Assembly (NCBI GenBank): GCA_977862235.1
Contig: OZ374557.1
Coordinates: forward strand, 2,170,001-2,234,000
Direction: 5' to 3'
Length of the DNA: 64,000 nt
From: Dudresnaya verticillata
Lineage: Eukaryota
Shown here: positions 2,084 through 64,000 of the stretch, piece by piece
Layout of the letters: the number at the start of each line of letters is the position of its first letter
How positions within the stretch are numbered: position 1 is the first letter of the stretch
Notes under the pieces: generated by a model
Databases searched by the model: none
The model's input: the letters and a program-made list of their open reading frames with translations, nothing else
What the model was told of the DNA's origin: nothing
Made by a program: the position numbers and the translations under genes

Positions 2084-3432
2084 CAACTCTGCATTTTTGT
2101 AAATATTGAGGTATAGGCTACTGCGTCGTTGCCAACATAACATCGTAATATTAGTGCATCATCTCTACGACAGCCGTTCGAAGAGCTGTGTTCCGTTAAA
2201 AAATAGTATTTCTTCACTGTACCAAAGGAGTACTAGCTCTTTTCTCCGCTATAGCGGCTTTCAAGTATACTTAACTGCATTCAAAGTATGCCTTGAGATC
2301 CATATTTCCCGTTCCCGGTCGGGTGCAACTGAAGGTCATATTCTCCTTTGCAGCCAGTTTAATCGATCTAAAACCTCTTTTGTGCTCTTGAAAGGGCTTC
2401 CTCCTCGCTACCCCGGTCATTGTAGGGTCGGATTTACGATGCTCCGAAGTCCTCAAGCTCTTCCTGAGACGACGCGCTCGCGATGCGACGCTTCTACCAG
2501 TGCTCGTATTTTTGTCAAGGAAGGAGACTTCCTGCTGACGACATCACCGTATATATGGTGGAGCTAATGCTTGGTTGAATTGAGAACGTTGCGAATGCCC
2601 ATTCCTTCCATTACGCCATGTTATACCACGGTATGGTGGTTGGTTTACATATTCCTTCGCAGTCGTGAATGGGTGAGCTGTAGGGCGATCTTTCCCCCAT
2701 TCTGCCGCTATCCCAGAAGCATACGTGCAGGCAGTCCCGTTCGCGGGACAGATGGGTGCTTTTTGCGGACGGTCTTGCCCTAGCCTCACATAGAACATCT
2801 GTGACGATGGTTATATGTCGTAATGCCCAATATTGGTTAAGTTAATATTGTGTTGGTCCCACAAACAACACTGAATTTTACAGCTTCAGATTGTTCCGAT
2901 TTGAACAGAATCAAAAACACCCCTCGTTTCTTACATACATTCGACAGAGGAGAACGACCTGAGAACAGCGGTGGAAACGGCGTGCTCTAAAGCCGAGCCG
3001 TTCGGAAGTTATAGTCGTCCGCACACAGCTAAATGCGCCCCTAAAATGTCCCGAATTTCCGCTGACATTTTCCGGAAATATTTCCCAGAAATTGCCCCGG
3101 GGCCATGCAAATGGCCCGCGTGCCAGGCCCGACTTGCCGCAATTTGCCACCGGGCCCGGGCCGCCCTTGGACACTGCGAAGTATTCAAGATCCCTGTGCA
3201 CGGCCCATCTGCTCACATCGCAGCTTTCGTGCGTCATTACTGACGACTCCGTACTTTTTATTGTACCTATTTTCGGGTTGAACACCGTCGAGAAAAGGAC
3301 GGGCTGAGTTTGTATTTGAGGTGGTGTTCTCTCACCGCGCAGTGCTGCACTTACCATGGCGAGCGCTCATTTCGAGCGAATACCAGGTTCAACTGTTTTG
3401 CCCGGAAATAATTCTGAAAGCTATGTCGTCTG

Positions 3433-3891
3433 TTGGGGTTAAACGCGACAGGGGAGATCTTGAACATTTCCGCGCTGCAGGCGAGAATGTGTCTACAAGG
3501 TCTGCGGAAACCACCGCGAAAGGCATCTGGTCAGTGCAGGACATGTATGTGTCATCCTGGTGAATCCAATGATGGACTTATTCAGCGCGTTGGTGTGGAT
3601 CCCATAATCACTGCGATGATTGCAGCGGAAGAAGAAGGGAGACATATTGATGGTCTGGAAAAACTCGGATTTACCTTATACGACAGGACGATCTTTCCCA
3701 GTTTTAAGAAGAAGGGTTATGGGGAGGAATACCGTCGCCGGGCCCTGAAAGCTGCCTATTCTGCCGCACAGACCGCCGCAATGAACAGAGACCCTAAAGA
3801 ACCAAGTGCCAGCACTGCAGCTGGGAACTCTTCCAAGGTCTTCAGGAGGTGGCCCCGTTACAGAAGCAATAGAGATAGCTATTTGCCTTAA
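3433..3891 (+). pseudogene. ORF-X fragment, unknown cargo protein
   Basis: PGESNDGLIQRVG...EGRHIDGLEKLGFTLYDRTIFPSF...YGEE aligns with PDESDEDMVLRIG...EGKQFVGLEALGIRLFDWSVFPTF...YGKE at 24423-24893. Confidence 0.6.
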
Positions 3892-6800
3892 TTCCAAGAT
3901 GCCTGGGTACTGCAACTGCTGCCCGCCTGAATGCGAATGTGCCAATTACCTACCGGAACCAACTTTGTAGGTAGCTGTGTAACAGTCCTTGGAGAGTAGC
4001 TTCCGCCGGAAATCTGTTAAACGCAACAGGTGACCCGGCGTCACACCGACTAGTGTCACGTATTCACTTCCAGCTCGTGGTTCTTTCCCTGACACTGCGT
4101 CCCTCAGTAAGCAGTGAAAAGAGTGTATTGCATCATCCATCAGTTGTCCGGCAACCATCCATTGTTCGACATGCATCCGTTCGCGCGACATGCCGTCACA
4201 ATGTCGCACATGACAAGGGATCCTGGTACTGAGCCCAATTCCGGCCTGACCTTACCCGCGACCGGTGTAGTTTCACTTTCATCCTCTTCAGCGCCATCTC
4301 CCCCTTCCGGCCTTGATCTCTTCCGGACAGGGTCCTCGTGATCATCCCTACTTTTTGCAGTACGCGTTTCGCTGCGTCAAGTCTTTCTCTTGCTCCTGCA
4401 TGGTCTGATTTTCCTTTGGCGTCAGTCCTGTACCGGCCGCCCCTGCACTAATTCCATCGACTTTACCTCAACGGACGTTACCATCGGTCTCCTTTGCTGG
4501 AGTGGTTTGCTGTTGCAAAGCTCTTTTCGCCTCACCGAATACTTCTTTCGTCCTCGTAGCTTCGAATTCGTTCTTCGCTAGCCCAATGCATCGTTGGTGG
4601 GCTAGTCGGAAAATGTCAGGATTCTGTTCGATGGACGTACATGAACGCCCGGTCCGTAGCGCTGCAATTTTGTCGTCACGGTATCCCCGTAAGTATCAAG
4701 GACGGACCCTTCTTCCCCACAGAATGTTTCCATCATCTCAGATGTTAAGTTTGGGTTCTTCTACTCCGCGAGGACTGGAGACTTTGTAGAGCGCTTGTGC
4801 AGTTTGTCTTTCGGTACAGGGAATCGGGAAACGACAGCAAAACGGCGGCCTTCTGGGGATAGTATCGGGTTGTAGTTACTAGACAGGTCCGGTTTGAACC
4901 CCTGCGGACGCTTCCCTGAAGCGCTCGCAAAGACAGCAATCTCCACGGATTTTGAGGCATGCTGTTCCCACGGTGTGCTTGCATTGACTTTGTATCTTTC
5001 ATGAAGATGTACGGGTACGCAGGGCACGTGAACGGGTACTTCACAAATGTCTCACGAAACGTCGGAAACAGTAGAAAAGACGTAAATATAACAACTCATC
5101 CCCCGGAACAACAACCCTTCTGGCGAACTCGACAAGGGCCTTGCTCTCCTCATCACTGAGAAAATTGTCATAGTTCTTGCCTGTGCCTGATTGTGAACTC
5201 TTGGTACCGTAGGGGGTCCGTAATCAAAAGGTCGAACGACGTGCTTCCTTCATAGCGGAAGGAGGACTCTTACCTCTGCCACATCATCTGCAGACATGTG
5301 GTTTTCATTTGCTCCAGGTAGTCGATTCGCGCGACACTTCCGTTTTCGTCTCCTGTCTTTCCAGTATTCAGTCGTTTTGACTGCAGTGTTGATTCAGATG
5401 CGGCGGCTGCAGTTGCAGCATACATGCGACCACCAACACCCCCCGTCGCACCCTCCTCAGTACATGCATCAGCCTCTGATGCTGTATTCGGGTCTGTGCC
5501 TTCTAGTACTACTGGTGTATCAATAGAACCCACATGATCTGCTGTTGCAGCAAGACACGGATTCATTTCGTTTCCTACTCCGAGATCACCACTCTGATCA
5601 CCTTCTTGACGAACTGAATTCTGTTCCTTTTCTGAAGGTTATTCAGCACTTTCTGGGGCAGAGTGTTCCACCACGGTTTCCGTTCGCTGAGATACCTGAG
5701 CCGAAATGACGATGTTGTAAAGATACTTCTTGAGCTTCAGCGGAGCCTCTTGAGGGCAGGTGTCCCTGTACATCTGCAATACAGATTTCAACAGCTCATG
5801 ATCGTTTCCCCTGTTCATGGATATCTCAACATCCAGTTTCGCGCCTCCTTCGCATATTTGACCGTATATCTTCATGTACGGTGGTAATTCCTTTTGCTCG
5901 CGGACAAATTCAAACTTGCGCACCTCTCGAATCGCTGCACTGGACTTCTCGAATTGCTCGGTCGTAAACCTGTGCCCTATTGGTTTGAAATGATGGATTC
6001 TGGACAGTTCCCGCAGATGGTACAGAGTCCTAATCTGTATTTCTACGCCCTCGTCGGAAATCCCTGCGTTCATGAACGGTCGTGATGGCCGCAAAGTTGA
6101 TATGTGTGCGAAACGCTTGAAGACTCGACAGTCTACAGCTTGCATTACAGTCATCTTATCCACAGGCCTCCCGGAAGCGTGCAGCTGATGACGCGAGGCC
6201 ATCTGTGGTAACTCCTCGTTTATTATCTTCCCGAGCTCTGCGATCGTTCTCGTGTGCAGACGAAGTACCATGCCTGCTGTTCGCTCAATAATACTATCCG
6301 TGAGGTGTTTGCACCCATCGTACACACGTGCGACAGCCACAGCAGTTGAGGCCTTCTCGCTATTTATAGCCGTCAGTCTGTTCGATTCTTCTCTAAGCCC
6401 CCTCATCACGTCGTAAAATGCCGTCTCTATATAGAACGCGGAGTCATGTCTCTTGTTCTGATGTCTGGCCAGTTGCCTAAGCAGTCGAATGTTGGGCCCT
6501 TCTTTCAACACAGTGACCGGAGGTGCGAACTGTTTCCACTTGTGGTAATCTTCCTGGAAAAGTTAGAGTAGGGCCGTAACTCTGTGCAGCCCGTCCACAA
6601 TTCCATACCACTCAGAACGCGCTTCATAAGCCTCCTCCACCTGCTGCTCCGACAGGGTTGAGCCGTCAGGCTCCGAGAGGATTGAGCCGTCAGGATTCTG
6701 TTTGGCTCTGAGATAAGTCATGGTGTAACGACGTAGAGTACCGCAAAACGTCACAAGTATCGGTGCGTCCGATCCAGCTACGAAACTAGTGTTCGAGGAT

Positions 6801-7087
6801 CTCGAATGTGGGTTTGGGTCTCCGCGGAATATGATCTTCAGCCTTTCAACACCAGAACGGACAATTGGCCGTATGTCTGTCAGCGGGATACATGCCTTCA
6901 TATCAACGCGGATGTTGACAGACCCAGCCATCAACTCCGCGAACAGCACCATTGCTGGCTCTGGGACACTAATACCGAGTCGTTAGTCGCCAAGCACTGC
7001 AGTGCTCTTCCTTCTTCTCCCCCTGGCATGTTTGGGTGCGAGGAAGTGCGGGTTCTTGTTGCAGTTAGTTCAGTCCGCCACGAGACG
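3780..7087 (-). pseudogene. ParB-like / beta-class DNA amino-methyltransferase fusion, copy 1 (disrupted)
   Basis: ORF pieces 6563-6952 (WYGIVDGLHRVTAL, ParB-type DGxHR), 5639-6511 and 5270-5566; SFDLLITDP/YG at ~5205-5240 (DPPY broken by a frameshift); CPAYPYIF at 4745-5044; GSVLDTYGDTVTT..IAALRTGRSCTSIE at ~4625-4710. Confidence 0.75.
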
Positions 7088-7966: not shown

Positions 7967-10700
7967 TCATAGGTTTCTATCTGGGCACATCTTTCGGATC
8001 GCGGCTGGCGGCCACGAACGTGTTGGGTGTGTAGGTCCGGTCTGCGGTCGGCCAATCCAGACTAGGTCCTGCGCCCTCCCCGTCCTAAACCTCTTCCTCC
8101 ACCGCGCCCCCGGGCCAGGTTTGTACGTACCTTTCAGCTCAAAGACGTTATCAATGTTCCAGTGGAAAGACTCTTCCCTGTCCATGTACACGTAGTCGCG
8201 CAATGCGCGAATCGATGCCATTTTTGTGGTTGAGTTGATTCGCATATCCTCGGTGCGCAGGCGGTCGTTGACTCTTGTAACGTCAGATGGGCTCCTGGCA
8301 GGCTTGTTTTGTATTTCCCGGATGTCTGGCACAAACAGAATGAACTCTTTCTGTTCCGATATTATGTCCAAAGCAGTGAAGTCATCGGTGCAATTAGCTC
8401 GTACTAAACAACCAGTGGCATAATGGGCGTTGGTAGGCGGGGAGCCAAGCACTCTGTTGAACTTGAAGAATGGGTAGTACGAAAAGGTTTCAACCCTGCC
8501 AATACATTGATCGGACTTGCATAAGCCTGAGAAATTAGCGACGTGCAGTAGTCTGTTCACTACAGGTGGCGGCGTGTATGGCTGTGACAATTCTGTCAAA
8601 AGGTCTTCCATGGTCACAGCCTCATTCCCCCGTAGGCACCTGGACGTGGAGCTAGAGGCTTGGTCAATGTCCACGTGTGTATGCCCTACGGGTACAACAC
8701 TGACGTGCACCTCCTTGAATACACACCACGCCACTAGACGCTCGTAGTAGAACATGAAGAATGTGTTTTTGTTCTCGCGCGAACAGTTGTCCACTTGTAC
8801 GTAGAGCGTGCCTCGCAACTCTGCCTTGTCCCTTTTGATCATGAGCCATCGGTGCCGTACTTCAGCTATGTGGTTTGCACCCGTTTCGAATTCCGCTGTC
8901 ATTGTGTACAGGTACAACTGCTTGCACGGTCCGTGCTCCAGCCCGCCGACAATCTTTGCCTTCAACGCGTGCCCTGTCGTGCTCTTGGTGGTCACTGGGG
9001 AGTGGGGCTGGCCGAAGGCAGACTGGTCTGCCCGGTCAATAATTAGCGAACAGAATTCCGCTGGGTACAGTTCAGCCATCTCGATCTTTTTGGCGTATTC
9101 CATCCTCTCTTTCATAACTAAGTCCAGATGTTTCCTTCGACGGCAGCCCAGCCCCTCAGTCTGTGAATTCCTGGGTTTACCGATGCGGTGGGCAACGCGG
9201 TTTTCTTGACTATGATCGTCCCGACGGCTGTCGGAAGGTTGTAGGAGCGGGCGTGAATGTGGAGCAATGGTCTCTAGCTCAAACGGAAGGTGTTTCGGAA
9301 AATTCAGGTTGAGACTTGAGACGTTCAGGTTGAGATCTGAGAAGTTCAGATCTCGGAAGTAGAGTTCTGCGTTATCGCAGCTTGGCTCGAATACACGCGG
9401 GAAGCTCGCAGCACGTTGGTAGGAGGTCCAGTGCGGTCAGCAAAAGGATAGGGAACAGGCAGACGGACGTCGGAACAGTGAGAGGGCGCTACCTCTCTGC
9501 TCGGTCGGTTCGCCGAGAGAGGGCTGCCTTTATTGTGGACGCTGTTCGCGTCCCGCTACAAAAGACAAGAAATCGGAGCTCTCGCGCAGCGAGAGGCACA
9601 GGGAGAACGACTTGCCGCGTGCTGTGTGGTCAGATCGCCACGCAAGCCGCCGGGTCGTGATGTGTCGGGGAGACACGACGGTGATCTCATTCTGATTGCG
9701 CATCAGGCGCGGCCTGTGAACCAGAAGATTATCACCCGTGTTGGAAATATCCAGGTCACGTGATATTTTTACAACGCCAGCCAAGTGGCTAAACGTGGCA
9801 CCCGGTTGCAGACCTGGCAGTGCTATGTCGCTCAATGGCGCCGTCATTTTCCGCGCAGCGGAACTCGGGTCAGGAGATCAACTACGCAGCCATTGCCGCG
9901 CAGCGGGTCCTGACCTGAATAGCACGTCGTAAATGGTAAGGATCAATTCAGGAGCTCAACGGCGCAGACGTTGCCGCGCAGCGGGTCCTAACCTGAATGG
10001 AACATAGGAGATGATGCTCAGGTGTAACCAGTCTCACTGGAGTTAGTATCAGCGTTTGAAAGGAGGCCACGTATGGTCTCACATTCTGTGCACTCTATGA
10101 ACTTGTGCGCCCTCCGCATCTTGATTCTACGACAGTGTTTCTTCGACGTGTCATAGAAGTAGCTCGGTACTGCTGGAGTCCGTTTTGGATACATCGTTTT
10201 GTCCTCTTCAACATACAAGTCATAAACTGCCTTTTCCTTAAAGTAAGGCATATGCAGCTCTTCAGCGTCTGGCATGCACTCCGCTGTGGATTCTGCCAGC
10301 ATTTCCAGAAATGTAATGACGACATCTCGCTCTTCGAATGGGCACCTCTCGCTCCACCCTCGACACCGCCCATCATAATTCGACGATCATTTGGAGTGCC
10401 CTTCACGCAGGCTTGGAAGTAGTGTAAGAATCAGAATGCACGGCGCAGAAAAGCGAAACACGCTGGCTTCCCGGCGAAATGAAACTTGACTAAGTCTGGC
10501 TTCAGTAGCGCCTCTAGGTACGCACACCGATCGTCAGCACCCATTACCTGCACATGTCGCGCTTCTGCAGGGACAAAAACCGGCTTCATGTCGATAAAGC
10601 AGTGCTCAGTGCCGCATTTCGTCCCCTTAATGTTATGTGCTTGCAGCTGCCGCAGCTGCTTCTTGCGCTAGGCGAGGAGATTGCCCTCGTGTCGCGTTCC
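7967..10700 (-). pseudogene. DDD-type DNA transposase, Sola/DUF7869-like, interrupted by an insertion
   Basis: 7967-9115 has SLIIDRADQ, LYVQVDNCSRENKN and VGHTHVDIDQ motifs; 10018-10302 has KFIECTECET (CxxC); a Cys-rich N-terminal remnant lies at ~10440-10680. Confidence 0.75.
9147..10018. mobile_element. ~870 bp unclassified insertion inside the transposase
   Basis: Flanked by CAG at 9144-9146 and 10019-10021; removing the insert and one CAG restores ETGYT-CRRRKHLDLVMKER in frame; internal repeats ccgcgcagcgggtcct(g/a)acctgaat. Confidence 0.6.
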
Positions 10701-12599
10701 CGTTTTGCGAGTGCAGCGAGTATACTTGCGTTTTCCGGCACGCTGACCAGTTTCTATGCATGCTTCATCATCGGTCTCTGAATTCCGTTCGGCTTCCGAG
10801 GATTCATTAGCTGACGACCGTCCAGCATTATGTTTGTATGTGCATTCTTTTGATGCACCTGAAATGGTCCCCTTGCGCCTCTTTCTATCATGACCACGCT
10901 TCGTGCCACTGTCCTCCGCAGAACCGGAGACAGGTGTTGAAACCCGTCTTCCTCCGCTGCTCGTCCGTTCCCTGACCTCCTTCTTGGGGGAAGGTGTAGG
11001 TGACGCTTCCCGTTCAATGTTACTCTCTGCATCCGAGCTATCGGGGCTATAATCGGATGGTGCCTCACCATCCGAACCATATTATACCGCTGATGAGTCT
11101 TCCCCTTCTCGACGAATGCTACGCGTGACAACTGGAAAGCGGTACACCTTCGGCGGCCGGGGTAAAAGCTGCGGTTTCCTCTCCGGTGTATGAAGCAGAA
11201 CTTCCCCTTCCTCTGTGTCCACAATCACTCTCTTTCCCGCATGGGCATGGCCATCGCTTGCACCGCTAATGTCCCCTGCGCCCGGCTTTTTGCTGGCCTT
11301 ATGAGGCGAGTTGTTCTTGCCGCCTGCCCGTTTCGGCTAGGCCATGGCTCCCCACCGTTGGTTTAGGCATAGCAGTCCTGTTCTGGGTTCGTAAAAGTCT
11401 GGTTTTCGTGCGGGCATTGCGGTCTGACCTGCGTTCGTCCCCAGCTAGTCGCATGCTGTTGGCATCCCAAGCGTGGAAGACGTTTGACAGCTGTCCAAGT
11501 TTTTCGGGAACATCGTCAAGACTTTTGTATATGTAAGGATAACGACCGGACGCAAAGCGCTCATGAATATGTACCTTGCGAATCACCACTAGCAACTCGT
11601 CTCTCTTCTGCTACTCTGACAGTTTGTGATTTTGCAACACCACGCAATACTTGCCGGAACTGTCTGCTCTTTGCGGTGTCGCTGCCTTGAATATGTCAGC
11701 ATGGCCCACTTCCTCGTCCCTCATCAGCAGCACTACCTGATCTTTCTTGGCCCCCTCCGGCATGGCTCACGGGCACAGAAGCATTAATCGAAGTTTTGCA
11801 GTGAAGGCCTATACTGGCGTGATTTCCTCGAGTCGGAGGGTCTTTTGCGACAGATGTGGGGTTTTGCCCGCGCACGACGAAGCCTAAGCGAGACTTCTTT
11901 TGAGAGTGGTGCGGGGTGTTGTGGAAGATGGAGAGGCCCGAGGGATGATAGTGGGCAGCCGTACGCTGCCGAGGACGCGATCACAGCGTTCCAGCTCTTT
12001 CGTGGTAACCGCGAAACAGTTTCGCGTTGCCGTTTCGCGTTGCACTTATTTTGCGGTTTGGAGTTCAATGCGACTGAAACTTGCAGCTGTTTGGCGGTTT
12101 CTCGGCGTGTGTCAGCGAGAAAGTTATGCTGAGTATGTGGAGGGGGAGGGAACTCGGCACCGCGGGTGAGCTTAAACGTGGGCTGTGCACATAGTGCACC
12201 GAGCAGTCTTCTACGCGTTTTTGCAGTGAGGCGAGGTGGCGGTTCCTGCGGGGCTGTTAAGCAGTCTTGTGCTAGACGAGTACTAAACATGGAGTTCCCA
12301 GGTGATTTCCAAGCGAAATATCAGAAAGATTGGCCAAAACGGATTCTGTTCGGAGATACAGAACCCAATATTGGCACAGGAGGGCCCCTCGCAGCTACAC
12401 AGAGTCCGACACGCAGACCCCAGACGATTTGGGAAACGCTTGTAGCGTCAAAATATCCCGGCATTCAACCTGAAATCATCACCTGAAAGCACCACTTGCG
12501 TTACCATCACGTCTTCCCCCCTTCATCCTGCCCCCCGCCTTCACCCTGCTCCCCGCCCGAGTCGAACGCAAAAAGCCGCGACAAGAGTCCATGTCCTTT

Positions 12600-13285
12600 C
12601 AGTGCAGCAGGCCGAATTCACCGCCGCCCCGCCCTCCCTCAGCTCACATGAGTCGCTCAAAATGCTCAGCTTGAAGCAGAACAACCTCAAAGGCCGGCTT
12701 CTGGCCCCCATCTACCCCCTAACCTCACTTGGTTCATACGCACTTCCAATTCGCTCACAAGCCTCTCCTTTGACCTCCCTTTTCTCTGTTCTCGCGCCCG
12801 CAAGCTAATGCTCTCCAACAAATCTCTCACCTCGCTACTACCGTCCTTCGCGTTCGAGAAGACCCATTTGGATCTTCTGCGCCTGTCAATAACAACTTCA
12901 CCACCTTCCCCCGTGAGGTCCTGAAGCTGCCCCGGCTCAAGTGGCTCTCTGTAGCGGGTAACCCAAGCACGCTCACGTCACCGAGCTAAGCTTCCGACCT
13001 ATTATTACACACTCTTGTCGACGTGCTCGCGGAAGCATGCGACGTTGACTGTAGCAATCCGGACGGCACCGGTGCCTCTGAAATAGCCTTTCCGAGTGTG
13101 TATCGCAATTCCGGCAAAGCCGTCGACGTGAAGCGCTTCGCGGCTCTGAAGTGTAGCGACGGTGCTGCCCCGCAGGAGGTTGCTGTCATATTGGCAGTGC
13201 GAGACGTGCCTGTTGTCGTGCATGCCGAGGCGTACAGCGTGGGGACGGACGCGGATGGTGCGCTGCGGTGAGTCGTGCTCGTCAC
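12600..13285 (+). pseudogene. LRR-protein kinase relic truncated by an LTR
   Basis: Frame-switching translation gives LKMLSLKQNNL, RKLMLSNKSLTSL and LKLPRLKWLSVAGNP, then kinase N-lobe-like GTGASE...VDVKRF...SDGAAPQE; ends at the LTR at 13286. Confidence 0.6.
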
Positions 13286-14120
13286 TGTGGCATAGAGGTC
13301 AGATCGAACTGACGTCTAGCACGGCTGGTCTCATAGTCGCACCCAGACCCGTCGAAGGATGGTAGCGGTGGTGGTAGAGCGGTGGTGTCGGCCGCGCGCG
13401 CCGTTGACGGTCGCGGATCAACCGCGTCGAAGCCTGTGCGCGCACGGGGCGGACCGTACGCGGGGGGCAGCGGCCAGATTCCTGCGTCCCCGTCGTGGAG
13501 CGGGACGAAGCGGACGGTAGGGAAGGAAAAGAAAATCCTAGGCGGCTAGGGAAAGAGGGAAGCCGTAGGGCGAAGGACTGGGAAGAAACCCAAAGTAGAA
13601 AGGGGCAAGCCTGGCGTAGGCTGGCTTGCCATGTTTACTCAAGCCCAGAGGGGACTACTAAATAGACTGCAGGGCCTGTGTCGGCACCAACCCGGGAGGT
13701 GCGCCGGCGCGCCCTGACACGCGTCGACGCGTACGGGTAACGGTAACCCAGGGGCGCGCGTGGGCGAGACAGTCCACACGTACTCAACGGCTCGACGCCG
13801 GAGTACGCGCTCGCGTGTCACGCGCTCAACGGTTCTACGCCGGAGTGCTTGCGCACGGCACGCGGGACAGCAGGGCATTCGACCCCCGCTTACATTAGAC
13901 AGTGCTGCACACTACACAAAAATAATCGTAGAAATTACGTGGGAGTTTTAGTGTCACACGCGTACACGTACACGCGCGGGCACCACAGCGCACTTCCTTA
14001 CAGTTCAGCGGTGTTTCGGCGCCAGCGGCTGACAGCGTGCGCACAGTGGTGCACACGTGGCGCAACCGGTCTTACAGCTGCGCGTGCGTGGCACAGCTGG
14101 TCCTACAGCTGCGCCACACA
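13286..14120 (-). repeat. 3' LTR of a minus-strand Ty3/gypsy element
   Basis: tgtggcatag...cacaca followed by a reverse-complement polypurine tract accccccctcaag (14121-14133); diverged homolog of the LTR at 33431-34159. Confidence 0.75.
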
Positions 14121-14447
14121 ACCCCCCCTCAAGCGCGAACGCCTCGGTCGCAACCGTACGACGCGCACGCTGTGGGGTGGCCAAGACGGCGCACGAGATT
14201 GGCCAGCGGGCCCCCCCGGACTTCCGTCGGTGACGCGCGTCGATGCCACGTCGGGTGTGCCCGCGCTGAGCCGCGACGGGCTATTTATGGAGCCGTCTCT
14301 GCGGCTCCGAAGGGGGTGGTCTGGTCATCGCTCACCACGACCACCAATGCCCCCCACGCGTACAGCGGCCTGTTGACCAGTGCCATACGCTCCAAGCTTC
14401 AACGCGCTCAACTTCTTTCTCCCCCCGTGGACAGCGTTGACGTGGCG

Positions 14448-17204: not shown

Positions 17205-17892
17205 AACACCCATTTAAGCCATTCCAGAATCTGACTTTGAAAACAGACTGAAGTCAAGTAGCTATTTTCTGATCTCGTTGGAAAGGGAAGCGTGTCCTGA
17301 GTACGATGGTGGAATCCGATTGGCCAACGGACCATTTGTTCCAAAGTTATGGAGGTTTGCGTGCTTTTACACAAAAGTTTCCTAAGGTTTCCGAAATTTA
17401 ATTTCCTTGCGTCGATTTGACCCGTCCGGACCAATATGTGGTCCGCATTGGGCCAGATTGGTCCGCTCGGTCCCCACCTGCCCCACGCGCTCGGCCCCAC
17501 ACCCCGATGCCACGACACGACCCCCCCCCATGGCACACAATGCCCCGACTGTGCCGTACCGCCCCGCGCAAAGCCGCGCAGTTGCGTGCGCGGCCCTGTT
17601 TCCACAGCCCCTACTCTGCCGCACCACGCCTTCTCAGCGCACCTTCTGTACTTTCCTTTGCACGTCCATACGGAACAGCACAGATCACCGTCACCGCGTT
17701 CTCAAGCTGCGCAGATGGGCGCCTGAACCAACAACCGCCTCCAAATCTAGCTCAGTACCTGCGCGACTACTCCTGCAGCTTCAGTGATTTCCACTGCTTA
17801 GCAGTCTGCATCAGCGCAACGGTAGTGCGAAGTGTGATTTCCTTGGTAAGCGCACAGTGAGGAAAGGTGGTGAAGTGCTAATGGTCACGACT
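17205..17892 (+). repeat. Left terminal inverted repeat
   Basis: Inverted match to 26255-26949, roughly 85-90% by eye; mirror ORFs 17165-17605(-) and 26552-26995(+) translate nearly alike. Confidence 0.92.
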
Positions 17893-18991
17893 ATAGCCTC
17901 GGAGGAGACTGCTTGCTTCGCGCTCACCGGTGCAAGCGTGTGCGTGATTGAGACGAGTTGCTTGGGGCGCGGAGCGCCTTTACATCAAATCGCTAGCAAC
18001 CTCAATACTACGAGAAGGATTCATGCCCCCACCATATGCAACCAGTGCATGCATGGCTGCTCCATAAACCGCATTGCCGTAGACACTAACCGCAACTTCG
18101 TTGATCAACGAAGTTGCGGTTTCGAAGCTCTTCAAGTCCATTAGCCACTTATTCAAATCGCCTCCCCGAGAAGATAGAATTTCTTCAGCCGCAAGCGACT
18201 ACGTTCTGAATCCTGAATATCTTCTAGCATTCGTTCGGACTCTGGAACAAGGTAAGCAGACCTCTCTCGGCACTTCGCATTTCTTGATTCGTTTGCATCC
18301 ATCATACTCGCCGTTTGCTGAATAGCTTCATCGGCGTCGGCGGGCTATGTTGCTGTGCACAATTCTTCAGCGCCAGTAGGAGTAGCTTTCGCCATGATTT
18401 TCTTCCCTTTATCTTGATTCTGAGTTTTTCTGGGACAGAACATAGGGGGTTCACGTTGAGCGGAAGTCCACAAATGTCCCATCTTGTAAGATGGGACTCA
18501 ATGCTTTGGACAGGGGTTGCTGTATATAGCAACCCCTGTCCAAAGCACTGAGATTCGTATCATCTCAGCACCAACAACTCTATCGACGATAAAACAATTC
18601 ACAGCTTCATCACGCGACTCATTGTGTGTGGCCCTCTTACTCTTACTACAACGTAGTGGGTGTTGCCCTGGGTGTGACTGCAATGAAAGTTTGAGTACTG
18701 CAATTACGAACTGCTTGAATTGCAAAGGTAATCCCCCATGATCCAGTAGAATGGCTGTACCTCTGTCGCTGTCTTCCTTCGTCTCATTCTCAGCAAGTAT
18801 TCATGTTGAAAGAGGTCCACATGATGACAACTTCGCGTCGTCCCCTCTCCTCGTCTCAGGCATCCCAGACACTCGCCCCATGGAAACATCGTGATGCTCT
18901 GGTTCTACCTCGACGGTCTTATACAGAAATACAACTTTTTAGACGTCCTTCACTCACAAGATAACCCCTCAGCTTGCTGCACAGTTCGCTA

Positions 18992-19357
18992 TCAGCGTGC
19001 ATCATCTGCTCTGGCAATAACTACAGACAAGACGAGTTCAACCCCATACAGAAAGTTTCGTTTAATACCCCTCACATCCAAACCCACACACGCCTCTGAT
19101 TCAGGATCTTCTACCGTCCAATTCAATGGGATCGCCCAGCCCAGCAACCCTAACACATCCCGAGTTCCCCTCATCACCCCCTCCCCAACCTGCCCGGCTC
19201 TCTCCATCATATCGCGTGCCCATCCCATGAGCTGCTCCCGGAGCCATAACGTTGTATCCAGCTCAGCTAGGGCAACTCCGCGCGTCTCGATGACTTCAGC
19301 ACGGAGAGCCCTGAGTGGTTGTAATAGGCTTTCCGGAGCAGTGTCGGAAGGTAACAT
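18992..19357 (-). pseudogene. Unknown cargo ORF-Z with an inverted paralog at ~25520-25850 (+)
   Basis: NWTVEDPESEACVG vs KWTAVGPESEA*VG; 26/28 nt inverted match between 19082-19109 and 25751-25778. Confidence 0.4.
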
Positions 19358-19649
19358 TTTGTCACTGTGCGGGTCACGTTCGGGTCCGCGATTTCCTTCA
19401 TATATACTTCGACGGCGCCACTGGAAAGCTTAACGAAATTTCGTTACCCTCCGCTCCAACCGTGTCAGTACGCTGACCTGTTGGTCAAAAACCCTCTGCT
19501 CGATTCAACTTCGCAAGCTCTTCTAGGAGGAACAAGATGAGGCGTTTAATAACCTCATTCAACCTTGACGGGGGCTCACATCCTGTCCGCTAGCATCGTG
19601 GTTAACAATAGCGTCCGAAATCCCAGGACCCTGCTCCACTTTCGCTTCA

Positions 19650-22123
19650 GGATTGAGACCATTCTGCATGCGTAATAAACGCTGCATGTATAACCGAAGG
19701 TACGTGGTCAGCAGGACGTGCCAGCATGCCGGTGAGACATTTTTCAGAAGGTGGCGACATTTGGCAGCTTACGACAATGCTTCGTACACCATACACACAG
19801 CCGCAGCTGAATGGGCTCTGTGTCATGCTCGCGTCGTGATGCTTGAATGGGTCTGAATAAAGTTGGCCGGCATAAGATGCTCCGACATCAAGGACCACCA
19901 TCCCAACCGTTCTCTCCTCAGAAACGCGGCGCTGGCATTCGGGAAACTTATTACCGTTCTCACGATATCAATTAAGAGGGCTTGTTATCACAGCGAACTT
20001 CCTTCTCTCGCGACATGGAACGTAGTGGTACGGACTTGACAAGCCGGGGAGAATGATCCCTTCGATAATCCTTTTCGCCTGCCAAATACTGCAATCTCAG
20101 CACCATTTTGCAGCCACCTCCTGCGACTGATCTGAATAAGTTCATAAAACTGCAAAAGATGAAGACCCACCCACCCTCCTTCACTACTCGTCCGCAGAAC
20201 TCACACAACAGTTTGATGTCCTCTTCAGTAAAGTTGTTATCGTATGCAGTACCAACGTCTGACATACCCTTGGGTATCCCGTACGGTGGATCTGCAAGGA
20301 CAAGGTCTAACAAAGGACTGGACTCGTTTCGGATTGACTCGGCGTACTCCTGCCACCGCATCTGATGGGTGGTTACTCCGCACTTGGAGATACCGTCACG
20401 GTCTCCCTCAAGAGACGATGTAATCAACCGCTGCGATTGTCGAGTAGACGCCGCGGAGCGAATAGAGGGCCTGGAAACATTCTCTCCACGCTGATCAACC
20501 TGTTCTGCTGTACCGGTCCCACCATGCTCGCCATCTTCATTGCCATGCACCTTGACCGGCGTGGTCATATCCAGTGTCTGATTCACGACGCCGGTAGGCA
20601 TTTCGAGACTTTCCTGCTCTTCTTCAGGTGCCATCCCGTCCATTCCATCCTTTTCCTCGGCATTGCCGCGATCAACCACACTATCGGGGCCAATATTAGG
20701 ACTGGAAACCGGATGGTTCTCCTTCTGGCCAGTTGCGGGTGTGGATTCCCCCTGGGACTCGACCTCTGTGCGGAACTGGTATCTATACTTCTTTTCTTTC
20801 CGTGGAGCTTCCTGAGGGCATTCTCTTCGATATGCATCCAGCAAAGGTTTTAAAACATCCTGATCGTTGCCGAAGTTCGCGCGTACCTCATGGTCCAACT
20901 TCGTGGAGTTTGAAAGGTTTTGCCTAATGACGTGCATTCCTTCCGGCCACGTTTGGGTCTCCAACAATCGTTCGAATTTTCGCGCTTCCTTCATTGCTTC
21001 CTTCGCTTTCTGAAACTGCTCCAGGGTCTGATAGCTTGTCACAGACCGGAAGTTCTGAAGTCTGTGCACTTCACGGAGTCTGTGCAATGTAGCTATCTGT
21101 ACTTACACCCCGTCCGCCACCTTGCTCGCATTCATGAAAGCGGCTGCAGACTTGAGCGATGTAATATGGATGAATTTCCTGTACACTCGGCAGTCGACGC
21201 TTCGCATTGTCCCATCTTTGTCCATCGAAGTGCCTTCTCTGTCGCATATTATCTTGGCAGCCAGGTCCGGCCTTTCCTCATTCGTAATAATTCCAATTGC
21301 GTCAACAACCTTCTGATCCAGACGCAAGACAGTCTAAGCAGTCTCTTTAATGGTGCTATTGAGATACAGCTTCGAGCCATCATATGCCTCGGCAATTTTG
21401 GGAGCACTGGGTTGCTTCCCTGTCTTGGATTGAAACCTGTCAGCTTCCTGTCGCAAGCCATGGATTAGATCGTAAAAGGTAGTTTCGATGAAACAGCGGT
21501 GTGCATGTTTCTCGTTCTGATCACGGGCAAGCTGCCGTAGTTCACAGACGCTGTGACCACCCTTCAGTAATGTGACAGGCTAAGCAAACGATTGCCACAC
21601 TGTGGGAAATTCCACCATTAATTCCGATATGACACAATTTCGATGTACTCCATCCACAATTCCGAACCACTTGGCACGAGTAGGCACGAGTATTTGCCTT
21701 TACCAACGCATCCTCGTCAGAACACAGCTTTCCACCTTCTGTTCTGGACCTTTTGAAATATGCTACAACCAAACCCCTCAGTGCTCCGTTTTATTCGACA
21801 ACGATTGGGGAGTCGGACCCGGCGACGTAGTCAACAACGCCCTCCTTGACATGAGAAGAACGTAGGTGAAAACGCGCTTTGAGTCGTTCCACACCGGATC
21901 GCACCACAGGCCTTATCTGTGTCAATGGAATGCATGCTCTAGGGTTGATTCGAATGTTGACGGAGCCATCCATGACATCATCAAACAAAGCCTTCCCGCT
22001 ACTAATGGAGGAAGTTATTTCTGCTTCTGCAGCGGAGCTGTCAGCCCCTTTTCCTGTTCTCTTTCTCGACATCTCGGACAATCTCCCCGTCGAACGCGGC
22101 ATCGACTTTCGAAGGTCTTTCAC
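19650..22123 (-). pseudogene. ParB-like / amino-methyltransferase fusion, copy 2 (disrupted, motif I region apparently deleted)
   Basis: GSVNIRINPRACIPLTQIRPVVRSGVERLK matches copy 1; VDCRVYRKFIHI; LDLVLADPPYG...GGWVFIFCSF in 19972-21087; homology breaks shortly after ~20140. Confidence 0.78.
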
Positions 22124-23710
22124 AGTTATCTTGTGTGAGTTTCCGAATTGTAGCAGACCTTATCGCGGAATGCTGAAAGCCTTGATAACCACTTGCGAGT
22201 CACGAGCATATGCTCGTACATGTGGAGAACGTTCTGTTCACTTCGTTACCGTCGAGGCTCAGAGGGCATTCATTTCGGACAGTGGGTGGCGTATTGGTAC
22301 CGCACTGTACATGCCTGCTAACTTGTTGCGTTTCCAGTATCAAAATTGTTTGACCGCCTCGTGCACATTGCACTTTTCAACCCGGGGATACCACCGCCCA
22401 GTGCGCAAAGTGCTGGGTTCAGAATGGGGCGACTATCCGAAAGGGCAGACCTCCCATGCATACATTCTGATTTTATCTCCCTTCCTAATGACGGTCCGCC
22501 TGAATTCGTAGGTGGAGAAAAACAATCATGCAGGTTTTGCCTCCACGTAACAGCTTAACATTCTGCTTCCTCAGAAACAATTGGGTGACATTTCTAACTG
22601 TCGGAAAGTCCAGTGATTCTGATTCACGTCTGCCCTAGAAGCTCAGGGAGGAGAAAAATTGGGCATGCCTATACGGAACGCATCTACAACGTGGAGCCGG
22701 CATTGGAAGTCTAACACTCTTTGCCTGTCAGTGATGTGGACGATTCAGAAGCAACGTTCATTCGTTCTACTTGTATCCATATGAACGTGTCCGTGAGAAA
22801 CAATAGAGATACGTCCCGTTCTTGCCACGGGCTGCAGAGATAGTTTCTGTTAGACACTTGAACCACCGAAACAGACTAGTGATCACCATCGATCTTCAGA
22901 TGGCACAACACACTTAAGTCTGCTGCCCAATTCCAGAACGTATGCAAATGCCATGTAATTAATTATTGCCGCACGTCAGCCCAAGAAAGAGCCTGCACCG
23001 GTATGTCGATGCGATTTCTGTAGATAACGCACGTGAGACCATATAAGAGCCTAAACCGGTGTATCGATGAGATTTCTGTAAATACAGTCCAGAAGATTCC
23101 TAAGAAAAACCTGTCCTCGTTCCAGGAATGCGCACAAACCGTATCCTCCAGAGGTCCGGGTATTCCGATCCACGAATCCACCAAATATCTGGGGGGTGCA
23201 TCCGCGGTGATGCAGGAGTGACCACCAAGTAGAGGGCACATTTCTGAAGCGTCCTTATACTATTGCCTGAATAGGTACTTCAGTACTGTACAGTCGTTCT
23301 GATTGTGGGAATGCGGACGTGTCTAATCAAAGATACAAGGAATTCCTAAGCCTCGTACACAGCAGAAACCGGTGGCTACAACTCGAGGTTAATTCCCGGA
23401 CTGGTATCGGCGGGATAGATTTCGAAATGCACCGAATGGTTCATGGTCGGTGTAGCGTTGGGTGCCGCAGACAGCTGTCGCTAGCTTGCAACCTCTTGTA
23501 AGTCTCAGGTCATTGTTTAGTTTGCAGTTTCGAGACATACTGGAGTTGAATACTCAAGCAGGAGACGTTAGTCAATCGAGGTTAAACGTCAGTCCAGAAT
23601 CGATCTTCGAATCTTATTTTCCTTGTAAAAGCGCGCAATCGGGTACTTCAATTCACAAACCATCTCGACGGTTCTGAGAACGGAGTCGTACCATACACAG
23701 AAAAGAAGGA

Positions 23711-24277
23711 TTGTTCCCAAAGTGTATTCGTAATATTCTGGACATGCTCATTGACCTGCTATCCTTACCGGACAACATACAATCCGGTTTAAGTGCATGT
23801 AATGACCTTATGCGCTGTGACTTGCGCATTGGATTGGGACAGCAGCAGTATCGCCTTGACGGCAACTCTTTGCAATTTTCTGAACGTATAATGCGATCCT
23901 TGGAGCTGAAAGATGAAGAAGGAGGGTTGGAACAGAACCGCGCTCGGGTGTTTGAGGCCGTTATAGGCCAAGACGATCATGACCAGAAAACGCTCACAGT
24001 GGTATACCGTGCGGGTATGAAGAAGCTTGATTATGTGTCGGGGGATGCGTTCTGTGGATCTGAAGCTTATGGAATCGATCCGGTGTTGGTCAAAACGATT
24101 CGTCTCGCAAGTGAGCCAGTACGGGAGCTGGAGGGAATGTGCCGGCTTCTCCTGACATGGCATTTTGCCAAAACTAACGCAGAAGGGACTGTGGAGGTGA
24201 AGGGGGTAGGGGTAGCCCGTGCAGAGCATGACATTCGCGTAATATTCAAGAAGGCGTCCTCATGCAAGTCGGTTTAA
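23711..24277 (+). CDS. Hypothetical cargo ORF in TIR element
   Basis: 188-aa open frame with protein-like composition; no motif recognised. Confidence 0.3.
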   Translation: MFPKCIRNILDMLIDLLSLPDNIQSGLSACNDLMRCDLRIGLGQQQYRLDGNSLQFSERIMRSLELKDEEGGLEQNRARVFEAVIGQDDHDQKTLTVVYRAGMKKLDYVSGDAFCGSEAYGIDPVLVKTIRLASEPVRELEGMCRLLLTWHFAKTNAEGTVEVKGVGVARAEHDIRVIFKKASSCKSV

Positions 24278-24422
24278 TATGGGCCAAGGTCGAATTCGAC
24301 CAATCAATCTGATTCCGAACCAAGGGACAATACTTGGAGAGGCGCGTCGGTTTGGAATAGGCGTGCATATGGCCGTACCTTTCATTTGCGGTAAGGTTAG
24401 CAACGCAAAGGCGTCGACGATT

Positions 24423-25100
24423 TTACTCCTGAAGGGCGACGTAATACGCGTTACGCTCTTGGCGGGTTTTGAATTTCCCATCTCCCCGCGAGAGCACTCC
24501 CAACACAATGGCTGTCCCGGGGTTTGACATCAGCTTCTTTTCCTCCCTCTCGTGAATCTCGAGTAGGAAGGCCTTGAAACCCCCAAGTCGTTCAGCTTGT
24601 CCGTGATTATTTAAATTTTCTTTGCCGTAAACGCGATTCATGAACGTAGGAAATACGGACCAATCAAAAAGTCTGATTCCCAGTGCCTCCAAGCCGACAA
24701 ACTGCTTCCCTTCGGAGATGATGTACTCAATACGTGCAATCAATTTGGCCTCGCCGATGCGAAGAACCATGTCTTCGTCACTTTCATCAGGTCTGCGCAG
24801 GGCGTTAAAACCAAAACAGGACTGGTCGTGGCACATTCCAAGCAGTTCATGTCTGTTATCTGTTGCAGGCTCGACATATAAAAAGTCCGACATGTTCCGA
24901 GGACATACACTCGGAATGGCACAGGGGGTAGTATCTCAGCAGATGATGTCGGCAGCCCGAGCTAGGGCCGCTAATGTTCCGCTGGGCTGCATACCGCGTC
25001 TTATCTGTACTTGTTTTGGATTGGATTCATCATCCCAGCCATATTCAGTGTTCAGACGCGCAACTTTTAAGCCCTACCTTGCGGAAGGCCAGAGAACCAA
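24423..25100 (-). pseudogene. ORF-X, unknown cargo protein (copy 2)
   Basis: 156-aa ORF plus an upstream stop-interrupted extension; homologous to 3433-3891. Confidence 0.6.
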
Positions 25101-26254
25101 ATTGATTTGTGCTTCGACACGTGTTCACGGCAAATAACAATACATGCGTTGCTCTCGACGCTTGATTCAATACATGTGAAAGACCTGTACAGTTTCATAG
25201 GAGTGGAGTATGCCCCGGGGCAAATACAACTCTCGTTAATAGCATCAGAATGGCCTTTCTGGGTCCAAGTCTTTATTTCCGCGCCTTGGGCGTCGGTGCA
25301 ATCTTCAGTGCAGTCTTCAGAGCATGTATCTCTACAATTGACGTCATTCCACCGAGTATATGCTGGATGTCACGAGATGAATACCCACAGGCATTCTGCT
25401 GTGGCAGCCCGGGTGATGGAAAAGAAATCACACACAAACGTTGGTTTCATCGTGCAGGGCTCGATGTTACAGATACCTGTTGAACTGAGGGACTGAACCT
25501 GCTCGAGCTGGAGACAGGGAAGTGTGCGGGATATCCGTAATGATTTGTTCCCTGTCAAACGCAAACTGAATAGTGTCTGATTACAATTGTTTTTAATGTA
25601 TCCATTTGAAGTCACTGGCCGCTGGTGTTTTGAGGCCAATCCAGCTACCGTCTGCGCAATACAATCCGAATAACAATTGACTCTTGTCGGAGGAATCAGG
25701 CTCCAAGCCCCCCAAGTTGGCCAGAGTAGCAGTTCCAAGTGGACAGCAGTAGGTCCTGAATCAGAGGCGTGAGTGGGTTCTGGATGGAAAAAGGTAAAGC
25801 AAAATTGCAGCTCACGAAGCAATTTCAAAAAGGCTAGCAAGTGAGACCAAGTTCGCAAGCACGCCCCATTCACCAGCACGTCCAGCACACCGAGCACCTT
25901 CGGTTGTACTCGCAGCGGGTATTGACCAGGCAGAATGTTCTGAACCCTGGCGCGCGCGTCTGGGAAGCGGGGCCGTGACAGTTTGGACACGGTTTGAAAT
26001 ACAAACCCTAAACTCTCTGTAGTGCTGCCAACACAGTCGTTTGCGTGCAATTAGTCCGATACTCAACCATTTTTAACTCACATCCTGTTCCAGACGCGGG
26101 CTTCGTTTGCTAAGGGCGATCTGAAATGTAACGGCGTTTTCAGGACATGGTGTGCGAGGTAGAGACAGAGCATCACGACATGCCTATGCTGCGAGCGCCT
26201 TGGGTGCGTGGTACGAGGGCACACGACGATCTGAAGTTGTCATCATGTCTGTGC

Positions 26255-26949
26255 AGTCGTGCCCATTAGCCCTTCACCGCCTTTCCTCGCTGTGCGCTTA
26301 CCAAGGAAACCACACTTCGCACTACCGTTGCGCTGCTGCCGACTGCTAGGCCGTGGAAAGCAATAAAGCAATGAAGCTGCAGGAGTAGTCGCGCAGGTAC
26401 TGAGCTAGATTTGGAGGCGGTTGTTGGTTCAGGCGCCCATCTGCACAGCTTTAGAACGCGGTGACGGTGATCTGTATGCGTTCCTGTACGGACGCGCACA
26501 GGACAGTACAGCAGGTGCGGTGAGAAGGCGTGTCGCGGCAGAGTAGGGTATGTGGAAACAGGGTCGCGCACGCATCTGCGCGGCTTTGAGCGGGGCGGTA
26601 CGGTACAGTCGGGGCATTGTGTGCCATGGGGGGCGTGCCGTGGCATCGGGGTGTGGGGGGCGAGCGCGTGGGGCAGGTGGGGACCGGGGGGACCAATTTG
26701 GCCCAGTGCGGACCACAGATTGGTCCGGGCGGGACAAATCGACGCAAGGAAATTATATTTCGGAAAACCTAGAAATATTTTGTGTAAAATCACGCAAACC
26801 GCAATAACTTTGGAACAAATGGTCCGTTGGCCAATCGGATTTCACCATCGCACTCAGGGGACGCTTACCTTTCCAAGGATGCCACAATATAGCTTCTTGA
26901 CTTCAGTCTGTTTTCAGAGTCAGATTCTGGAATGGCTTAAATGGGTGTT
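26255..26949 (-). repeat. Right terminal inverted repeat
   Basis: Reverse complement of 17205-17892. Confidence 0.92.
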
Positions 26950-33144: not shown

Positions 33145-33413
33145 GAACACGGCGCTTGTGCGCGCCTTACAGCTTGATGCGCGTGGGCGTGTTACACCTT
33201 AATGCGCACACATGACTTAGAGTGCGCTAGCACTCTGCTGCGGCTCATTCTTCCACAAAGAAGGCGGGTTATCGACGGCCGCGCGTCAGCTCGCCCGTCG
33301 TCCGCACACCGAAATGGCCACTTCACCACATGCGGCAGCGGCTGGATCAGGAGGACTCCACATCCTTCACTTCGATCGCGTCGATGCGGGAAGTACTAGG
33401 GTCTCGACGACTT

Positions 33414-36010: not shown

Positions 36011-36011
36011 G

Positions 36012-59863: not shown

Positions 59864-60174
59864 AACACTAATTTCGCCGGCTACAGAATTTCCAAAACAG
59901 AACAGAATTTTTTGAGGGTCGTTGAATCCCGGCGTTCGATAGCGCGTTGGAAAGGGGGCGCTACCCTGAGAATAGTGGTGCAAACAGATCGGAGCAAACG
60001 CAAATAGTTTCGGAGTTATGGGCTCCGGTATATGGGGCCCCCCGGGTCGAAAGTTCCCGAAAGTTGTGATTTTTCCGAAAAGTTTCAATTAAAAATTCTC
60101 CAGAAATTGATTCTGGCCCGTCCCGCCGCCCGCGCCCCCACCCCCCGACCGCACACCGCATTCTGGCGACTTCT

Positions 60175-60298
60175 CGCCGCATTCCGACGCGCTCGGACTT
60201 GGCTTCCCACCGCATTCCGACGCGCTCGGACTTGGCTTCCCACCGCATTCCGACGCGCTCGGACTTGGCTTCCCACCGCATTCCGACGCGCGCTCGGC
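60175..60298. repeat. 33-bp subterminal tandem repeat, ~3.5 copies
   Basis: ccgcattccgacgcgctcggacttggcttccca repeated. Confidence 0.9.
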
Positions 60299-62020: not shown

Positions 62021-64000
62021 CTACCCAATCTTCTTCATGTTGCGCAAGTCCCACGAGAACAACAAGCCGTTTAGGCCCTTGAGATTGGCAGGAGGGTCCT
62101 CTACTCCCTTGAATATATACGGATACGAACTTAGCTCATACTCCGCCATGACCTTCAAACTGTACACGACCACAAGATGCTCCCCTGGTTTGGCAGATTC
62201 TGACAGATCGTGGCCGTGCAAGCGTTCATTCCAGTTCCCTCCTGGAGTCTTTTCCGGATGCAACACGGCCTCCCCCACTTCCTTATCATCTGCAAGAAGC
62301 GTGACTCTGTCTCCGGCCTTGGGCATTGCACAAGGTTCAGGTTTTTCCTTCTCCTGCACTTTTCATTCAGCTCCACACTTCCTACAACTATGTCTTCACT
62401 CCTGCCGTGCTTCTCGATACTCTCTTCGGGGTCATCCAATGCGTGCTCGGACGGTGTCGTCAGATGGGACATTTCAGGTCCCTTCCTCGTTACGGAATGG
62501 TTTGTTGGTTGAGCAGAATCTATTATGACAACACTACCTCTTGCTGCCTCACCGATACCATTCAGTTCGTGATGAGCACTTGATTCCAAACGTTTACGAC
62601 CTGTCTTCATTTCATATGCTTCCGTGGCAAGCCTACGTAAACGTTCAGCCCCCAGCTTGAATGTTTCGATCTGTGATTCGATTAGTGTACACCGACGATC
62701 TGTTCTGAGAGCTGCAATCCCAGTCGTCATGGTTCCGCTGTGCATATCCAGAACTGATACGCCCTCCGGACAGAATGTTGTCATTATCTCCACAAGTACT
62801 TCGGGAGACTTCTCTTCGACCAGAACTGGGGACTTGGTGCCTGGGCGTAGCAACTTGTGTTTCGGTGTTGGTAGAGAGGACATGCACGCGAATTTCCGCT
62901 TTTCTGGGGAGGGGATGCAGTGATACTCGCTCCTAAGGTCGAGCGAGAACCCTCCGCCATGCTGACCTGGGGCACGCGCCATGACGGCTATTTCCACACA
63001 GTTCTGGGGCATACCGCTCCCCCGATGTTCCTGCATGGTCTTGGGGTCTTTGGAGAATACGAATGGGTATGCCGGGCACATGAATTGTGCCTTCTTCAGA
63101 GCATCGTGGAATACACTGAAGTTCAGGAATGACGTGAAAACAAACAACCACCCCCTGCTACAAGTACGCGCCTCGAGATCTCAACTATCTTCTTAATGTC
63201 TTCCTCGCTGAGGTAATTATCGAATGACCTCCCCGACTTAGACTGCGATTTCGGTGTACCGTATGGTGGATCTGTGAGGATTAAATCGAATCGTTTGTCA
63301 CCTTCCTTCCTTACGGTACTGTTGTAGCTCTGCCATGTCATCTGAAAGCATGTCAGTTTCATTTCCGCAAGATAATCTATTGGAACAGAAAGCGATCCGT
63401 CCTCCACCGGCACAGCCTTAGTACCCATGTTGAGGCGAACGGACTGCTTTGATAACACAGTTGATATAGTGGGGTCTGTGGGACTCTTTTCCGGCACAGA
63501 ATGGTCTTTGGCTGCACATGCAGCTGTAGGGTCTGCGTTCTGCATGGGTGCCTGTCCAGATTCTGCTGGTTCGCGACCCTCTTCCCTTTTCGAATTGGTT
63601 GATGTTACTAAGTCTGAACCCTCTTCGTCGTTAGAGATTCCGGTAGCGTCCACCTGCGGTGACAACGTGCAGTCCAAATTCTGTTGACCGTCAGAATCTT
63701 TTGCTCCACATTCATTGGAACCCGGGCGGGTCATGATAGCGTCATCACGTCTGCCTTCTGTCGAATCCATCACAGTTTGCATATCTTTGTACTTCTGCAA
63801 CTTCACTGGGGCCTCTTCCGGACAACACTCTCTGTACATCTCAACTATTGTTTTCAACAGTGTACGGTCATTACCTCGATTCATGATGACCTCGACGTCC
63901 AGCTTCGTAGTGTATAACAGGTTTTCTCTTAATTTACTCATGCCTAACGGCCATTCTGTCCCCTCCCTCATTGCTTCAAATTTCCGACTCTCGGAAAGGG
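62021..64000 (-). CDS. Beta-class DNA amino-methyltransferase fusion, copy 3 (C-terminal ~660 aa; two 1-nt homopolymer frameshifts)
   Basis: RFDLILTDPPYG (motif IV), EEKSPEVLVEIMTTFCPEGVSVLDMHSGTMTTGIAALRTDRRCTLIE (motifs X/I/II), C-terminal domain 62021-62359; no in-frame stops once the frames are joined. Confidence 0.8.

Follow-up and report, generated by a model that had tools for sequence, protein, structure and literature searches.

Three transposons in a 64,000-nt stretch of Dudresnaya verticillata DNA (contig OZ374557.1, positions 2,170,001 to 2,234,000; hereafter the window) begin with an array of short words, and the comparisons described below confirm that this array is a conserved, non-random feature at the transposon ends. 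The reading that we favor, at a probability of roughly 0.6, is that the array constitutes the outermost ~150 bases of the terminal inverted repeat in three anciently diverged, Sola1-like transposons and likely serves as a binding and assembly platform for the transposase. Arrays of this type are ordinary for cut-and-paste transposons, and the general view of transposon-end function is unchanged by the present one, which occurs in a little-studied transposon group. We know of no biochemistry on Sola-type transposons, and a search of the literature on DUF7869 or Sola1 subterminal sequence, which yielded work on insect MITEs and on the fish pogo transposon Passer, found no account of how their ends are built internally. 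The coordinates of the arrays and of the features that accompany them are collected in Table 1.

Table 1. Positions of the arrays, genes, and repeats of the three elements, counted from the first base of the window
Feature	Position	Strand	Remarks
Element 1, left terminal array	2867..3016	+	AACAC tip, CAGA, AACAGA, CATTCGACAG, CCTGAG-N6-GGTG, AGTTAT
Element 1, second module	3056..3092	.	TT(C/T)CC(N)G(A/G)AA-like words, among them the palindrome TTTCCGGAAA
Element 1, accessory gene	4561..6982	-	ParB-like N-terminal stretch by eye only; methyltransferase-like C-terminal part
Element 1, transposase gene, in pieces	8120..11739	-	8120-9217, DUF7869 catalytic core; 10027-10940 and 11359-11739, N-terminal part
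Element 2 in full, 9745 bp	17205..26949	.	Non-autonomous, without DUF7869 transposase
Element 2, left terminal array	17205..17354	+	Offsets as in element 1
Element 2, accessory gene	19980..22159	-	Sub-threshold N6_N4_Mtase (E 5.8e-4, 20.3 bits; cut-off 26.7); DPPY motif
Element 2, right terminal array	26800..26949	-	Inverted copy; mismatched to the left arm at 16 of the first 160 nt
Element 3, left terminal array	59864..60023	+	Motifs after AACAGA shifted 10 nt inward
Element 3, GC-rich tandem repeat of 33 nt, 3.7 copies	60170..60291	+	Deeper inside the end
Element 3, accessory gene	62611..64000	-	Continues beyond the window; N6_N4_Mtase matched in two sub-threshold halves; DPPY motif

Conservation of the terminal array

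A regular-expression check, with positions counted from the first A of AACAC, places CAGA at +20, AACAGA at +37, C[GA]TT[GC]GA[AC]AG at +71, CCTGAG at +91, GGTG at +103, and AGTTAT at +140 in the left ends of both element 1 (2867) and element 2 (17205). The left end of element 3 (59864) carries CAGA and AACAGA at the same two positions, followed by the remaining motifs at +81, +101, +113, and +150, that is, 10 nt deeper, and every offset claimed for these three ends in the original prediction was thereby reproduced. At the right end of element 2, read as the reverse complement and ending at 26949, five of the six words occur at identical offsets, the +71 word (CCTTGGAAAG) being one base off the C[GA]TT[GC]GA[AC]AG consensus.

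Such agreement is well beyond what the controls return. The composite pattern AACAGA-N44-62-CCTGAG-N6-GGTG-N28-38-AGTTAT has four matches in the window versus none in 100 shuffles, and the ungapped identity of the left ends of elements 1 and 2 amounts to 84/160 at offset 0, whereas 80 other offsets average 39.5 (sd 5.3) and never exceed 51. When all three left ends are compared over 160 nt with the 10 extra bases of element 3 omitted, 64 of 160 columns are identical versus about 10 expected for random DNA, on a sample of three independent ends plus one inverted partner in which one data set supplied both the alignment and the conserved columns. Nearly half of these invariant columns (31 of 64) lie in runs of four or more, a figure reached by 9 of 20,000 column shuffles, and pairwise identity in the columns that remain is 20/96, 23/96, and 20/96 (21-24%), against an expectation, so conditioned, of 20% for unrelated sequences. 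The sequence between the motifs had been described as poorly conserved, and the motifs are indeed far better conserved than the spacers, the invariant columns being clustered and the spacers standing at random identity. The common register of the three left ends spans positions 0-160 and is lost deeper, where the best offsets wander. Where the arms of element 2 differ from each other, the conserved columns are spared only weakly (3/64 versus 13/96 mismatched; Fisher p = 0.10).

Two further readings of the array were considered and rejected. In the +71 word, every third base is variable, and L-S-N is encoded there, with silent changes, by a minus-strand frame; as a coding exon, however, this frame has stops in every copy, and the conserved columns are without 3-base periodicity (19, 24, and 21 by phase; chi-square p = 0.57). 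A folded RNA or DNA was rejected on the basis of a consensus fold of -2.1 kcal/mol, to which the +73 and +132 words contribute a single compensatory pair, and of ordinary z-scores for the single-strand DNA folds (-1.57, +1.01, and +1.53).

The +71 and +130 words are similar (GTT-N3-4-AAG) in element 1 (2938-2947 and 2997-3006) and in element 2 (17276-17285 and 17335-17344); their cores in element 2, TTGGAA and TTCCAA, are reverse complements, and element 1 has one compensatory change. The two words could be two sites for one dimeric binder. Inward of the array, counterparts of the second module of element 1 occur at 17388 and 26758 in element 2 and at 60054 and 60072 in element 3. Words of this module are found at +183 to +215 of every end and account for 7 of the 13 matches in the window; their spacing differs between elements, and no palindrome is common to the elements. 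Inside the elements, the sequence CGTTGGAAAG shows no enrichment (8 matches versus 4.55 expected).

Searches for more ends returned the known ones. Within the window, nhmmer profiles of 310 and 160 nt find just the four termini described above, and an extra CCTGAG-N6-GGTG at 29378 is without the other words and gives no nhmmer hit. Pattern scans yielded no match in viral contigs, 12 in metagenomes (none of the 12 with AACAC at -37), and 10 in prokaryote genomes, all of which were judged to be chance; nhmmer on the metagenome and prokaryote matches gave at most partial hits, of no more than 6.7 bits, over the selected words.

The three elements and their setting

The four termini had been ascribed to three diverged elements of one family, and this ascription holds, given that the array is shared and that the accessory gene is 42-56% identical in amino acid sequence among the elements over its longer segments. 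Because this shared gene has diverged to such an extent, the elements are, judging by sequence, old and separate lineages of one family, not recent copies.

Element 2 is the only one with both ends in the window, and the blocks are present at both of them, inverted. Its arms (17205-17892 and 26255-26949) have an identity of about 89% over a length of some 690 nt, and it has terminal inverted repeats, as do Sola1 DNA transposons. The array begins exactly where the flanks cease to be alike. The flanking 4-mers of element 2, CCCC and ACCC, which are the only pair testable in the window, agree at three of four positions and are not AWWT, the 4-bp duplication given as a hallmark of Sola1 in the available portion of PMC3845634. 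No clean target-site duplication fixing the exact tip was found at element 2, whose duplication may have decayed, the arms being about 10% diverged. A right end of element 1 was looked for in the window and not found. Element 2 keeps the array despite the absent transposase, without which it would depend on the enzyme of a relative.

The flanks of element 2 (13000-17204 and 26950-28000) have a G+C content of 62-69%, compared with 47-55% inside the elements, a strong difference in composition between the elements and the surrounding DNA. A short frame near the left end of element 1 (3556-3729, + strand) has a 36%-identical counterpart near the right end of element 2 (24618-24791, - strand), both directed inward; since this frame sits at opposite ends, elements 1 and 2 are arranged differently relative to the shared accessory gene.

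The window as a whole is eukaryotic DNA, rich in mobile elements and with its genes in pieces; tRNA and Rfam matches are absent from it. A Ty3/Gypsy chromovirus occupies 36384-43575 (+ strand), with reverse transcriptase, RNase H, an integrase zinc finger, and a chromodomain in the frames at 40308-43575. Two frames in opposite orientation, 30495-32045 (- strand) and 37616-38986 (+ strand), are homologous to each other and form an inverted repeat of 72% identity (I1), and a family-90 glycosyltransferase frame is found at 50.4-52.0 kb. Dispersed direct repeats (families D1, D3-D8, and D11-D14) link 32608-36012 with 48227-48889 and 54058-54875 at 83-91% identity and probably represent fragments of a further repeat family, for instance long terminal repeats. 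At 53805-53884, 40 nt are perfectly duplicated in tandem.

Genes carried by the elements

The transposase of element 1 matches PF25273 (DUF7869) at E 1.2e-38, and among the three elements its catalytic core is present, within the window, in element 1 alone. Residues D134, D216, D256, and D258 are invariant in all 37 aligned homologues; the homologues are unnamed proteins of 857-1182 aa, and the nearest Atlas clusters are 100% eukaryotic. An AlphaFold model of the core (pLDDT 74) is RNase H-like, with foamy-virus integrase as the best VIA match (Z 9.5, rmsd 2.8, 135 residues) and further structural matches to Mos1, Metnase, TnsB, IstA, Sleeping Beauty, Tn5, Hermes, and Mu. A Foldseek search of the core against the PDB produced weak rows only, with none at E <= 0.001, and the transposase profile, when run against the sequences of solved structures, produced rows of E 0.021 or worse, all of them unrelated proteins. 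In viral contigs, a scan with the transposase profile recovered one distant relative (L013, 26% identity), which was of no use for the ends.

Between the catalytic core of element 1 and the adjoining piece of the N-terminal part lies an 810-nt stretch free of homology, which is an intron or else an insertion; it contains, at 9870-10013, a pair of 66-nt direct repeats that are 82% identical and separated by 78 nt. The outermost piece, upstream of the catalytic exons, corresponds to residues 16-138 of homologue P0004, and the same residues match element 3 at 62015-62314 (- strand), just downstream of the methyltransferase-like gene, with no catalytic part there in the window. No Pfam family was found for this N-terminal part, the placement of which suggests a separately kept or rearranged DNA-binding-like module. 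A TnpA-like domain, which had been put forward as a possible binder of the array, has no family match.

The accessory gene is multi-piece, lies on the minus strand, and is found at a similar distance from the left end in all three elements. Its N6_N4_Mtase matches all fall below the Pfam cut-off (20.3, 20.8, and 15.4 bits versus 26.7). The ParB-like domain that had been seen by eye in its N-terminal part was confirmed by neither Pfam (no match even at E 10), Atlas (no hit), homologue search (no homologue), nor fold, the AlphaFold model having a pLDDT of 39 and being unusable.

Spacing of the blocks

Over 150 nt, the left ends of elements 1 and 2 are separated by no indel, and that of element 3 by one 10-nt event. 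Aligned over 696 nt, the arms of element 2 differ by 71 mismatches and 5 indel events, or about one indel per 14 substitutions, and because of this ratio several indels should be carried by spacers that stand at random identity. As 0-1 are found where several are expected, we infer from these three sequences that the distance between blocks has probably been under selection.

The original prediction took the fixed spacing, with its one indel close to a helical turn, as pointing to a phased multi-protein binding or recombination site. The register is indeed kept with a single 10-nt indel, which fits a protein-binding or recombination site; helical phasing, on the other hand, had one indel as its sole basis and gains no support from the periodicity of conservation. 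At 10-10.5 nt, the periodic signal among the conserved columns does not stand out (0.043-0.046 of column shuffles, before any correction for 22 periods), and the strongest period, about 17.5 nt, is marginal, being reached by 235 of 5000 run-preserving shuffles. Blocks at this interval of ~17.5 nt (2867-3026 and counterparts) fall near 2, 21, 39, 75, 93, 105-110, 131, and 143. In element 3, CGTT(G/C)(G)A-like words appear three times, at +56, +69, and +81, around the extra 10 nt. Because the extra bases sit among these words, the indel may equally well be explained by local duplication of a site as by a phase-preserving change of spacer.

Function of the array

The element's transposase would bind the array and assemble there before cutting at the AACAC tip. 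The blocks would act as protein contact points, with catalysis taking place at the tip and the DNA-binding domains of one or several transposase protomers presumably engaging the words further in (two CAGA(A/T)T-like, two GTT-N3-4-AAG-like, and CCTGAG-N6-GGTG). Distances between blocks would be selected because of the fixed geometry of the complex, and a non-autonomous copy such as element 2 could be mobilized because the array has been kept. The blocks are mostly different words and do not show a simple array of one repeated site.

Other proteins or processes might account for the inner blocks. They could be sites for the accessory protein, with its ParB-like and methyltransferase-like parts, which would take up position at the ends and mark or protect the DNA of the element, leaving the transposase in need of the tip only. 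We regard this as unlikely, despite the retention of the accessory gene in all three elements (even the transposase-less element 2), the DPPY motifs of elements 2 and 3, and the TT(C/T)CC(N)G(A/G)AA-like near-palindromes at +183 to +215; in addition, ParB-type accessory proteins of algal elements have been proposed by the authors to bind their own transposon (available portions of PMC12477816 and 10.1101/2025.02.11.637652). The domain is nevertheless confirmed here by no tool, the methyltransferase matches are under the Pfam cut-off, and the palindromic module lies outside the fixed-register array, with variable spacing and without a palindrome that recurs across the elements. Furthermore, classical ParB sites are palindromic, and the six array blocks are not. 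A two-protein switch, wherein the transposase and the element's ParB-like methyltransferase would dock side by side on sites at fixed distances and methylation of the ends would gate transposase assembly, strikes us as decidedly improbable; if true, it would provide a eukaryotic transposon with self-encoded epigenetic control of its own mobility.

It is likewise doubtful that the blocks represent a promoter or transcriptional control region conserved for driving the genes of the element, even though some other transposons house such a region in the inverted repeat. The array is non-coding and lies upstream of inward open frames (e.g., 3418-3888 in element 1), and fixed spacing is typical of core promoters, too. 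Conservation, however, starts at the element's first base and appears in mirror image at the two ends of element 2, which recognition of the ends predicts and a promoter does not require, and elements 1 and 2 differ both in the end at which the nearest shared inward frame is found and in its distance. Least credible of all is the notion that the blocks have no special function and are leftovers of common descent that escaped mutation and indels by chance. The number of independent sequences (three) and the common origin of the alignment and the conserved-column list speak in its favor, but the spacers are fully randomized, yet the 64 columns are invariant and clustered; the register is held over 150 nt and lost immediately inside; and uniform decay at 52% pairwise identity would leave roughly 43 three-way columns, not 64.

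Several uses of the array may be envisaged. The saturated ends, which share about 54 invariant columns above chance, offer a map of candidate protein contacts, and the array itself provides a 150-bp minimal end for binding and excision assays. Lastly, a profile of the array would be a sensitive finder of gene-less, non-autonomous relatives.

Comparison with known systems

The designation Sola1-like is made by analogy: the closest described element, Sola1-1_Ec32, was matched by its description. According to the available text of PMC12477816, Sola1-1_Ec32 is a giant Sola-1 element of Ectocarpus with a 282-bp imperfect inverted repeat, AACCG termini, an accessory gene that combines a ParB-like domain with a DNA methyltransferase, and a 4-bp duplication biased towards ending in A. 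To the extent of that text, Sola1-1_Ec32 and the present elements are alike in being eukaryotic, cut-and-paste, and larger than 9 kb, in having termini that start with AAC (AACCG there, AACAC here), and in bearing a long imperfect inverted repeat (282 bp in Sola1-1_Ec32, about 690 bp in element 2). The accessory gene is described there as ParB-like plus methyltransferase, whereas here the ParB-like part was seen by eye and the methyltransferase is sub-threshold; similarly, the duplication of Sola1-1_Ec32 ends in A, whereas the sole testable pair here is CCCC/ACCC. A conserved inner architecture of the ends is seen in the present elements, and the available text of PMC12477816 makes no mention of one for Sola1-1_Ec32. 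The inverted repeat of insect Sola1 MITEs (Table 1 in the available portion of PMC3845634) contains GAAAGTGGTG, which recalls the GGAAAG and GGTG blocks, although the resemblance may be due to chance.

An element-encoded protein with a putative ParB-like front part and clustered short words near the ends are features that the present elements have in common with ParB-parS sites and with the Plavaka elements of red algae. In the latter, ParB-type accessory proteins adjoin inverted-repeat arrays, as described in the available portion of 10.1101/2025.02.11.637652. Unlike in these two systems, the array blocks here are neither palindromic nor tandem, and the ParB-like domain was identified by eye.

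The array may be set beside the multi-site ends of other cut-and-paste transposons. Examples include the IR/DR of Sleeping Beauty-type Tc1 elements, the inner sites of the P element, the subterminal repeats of Ac/Ds and En/Spm, and the end arrays of Mu and Tn7. In these systems, the conserved sites are mostly copies of one word to which binding has been shown, whereas the words described here are mostly different from one another and known from sequence alone; the transposase, a DUF7869 DDD enzyme, also belongs to a different family. What the array and the known multi-site ends share is a set of short conserved words inside a long inverted repeat, at both ends, with spacing that outweighs the intervening sequence and with words that are kept by non-autonomous copies. 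In the window, the words lie inside the inverted repeat at both ends and are kept across relatives while the spacers vary, and their spacing, as judged from three ends, is constrained.
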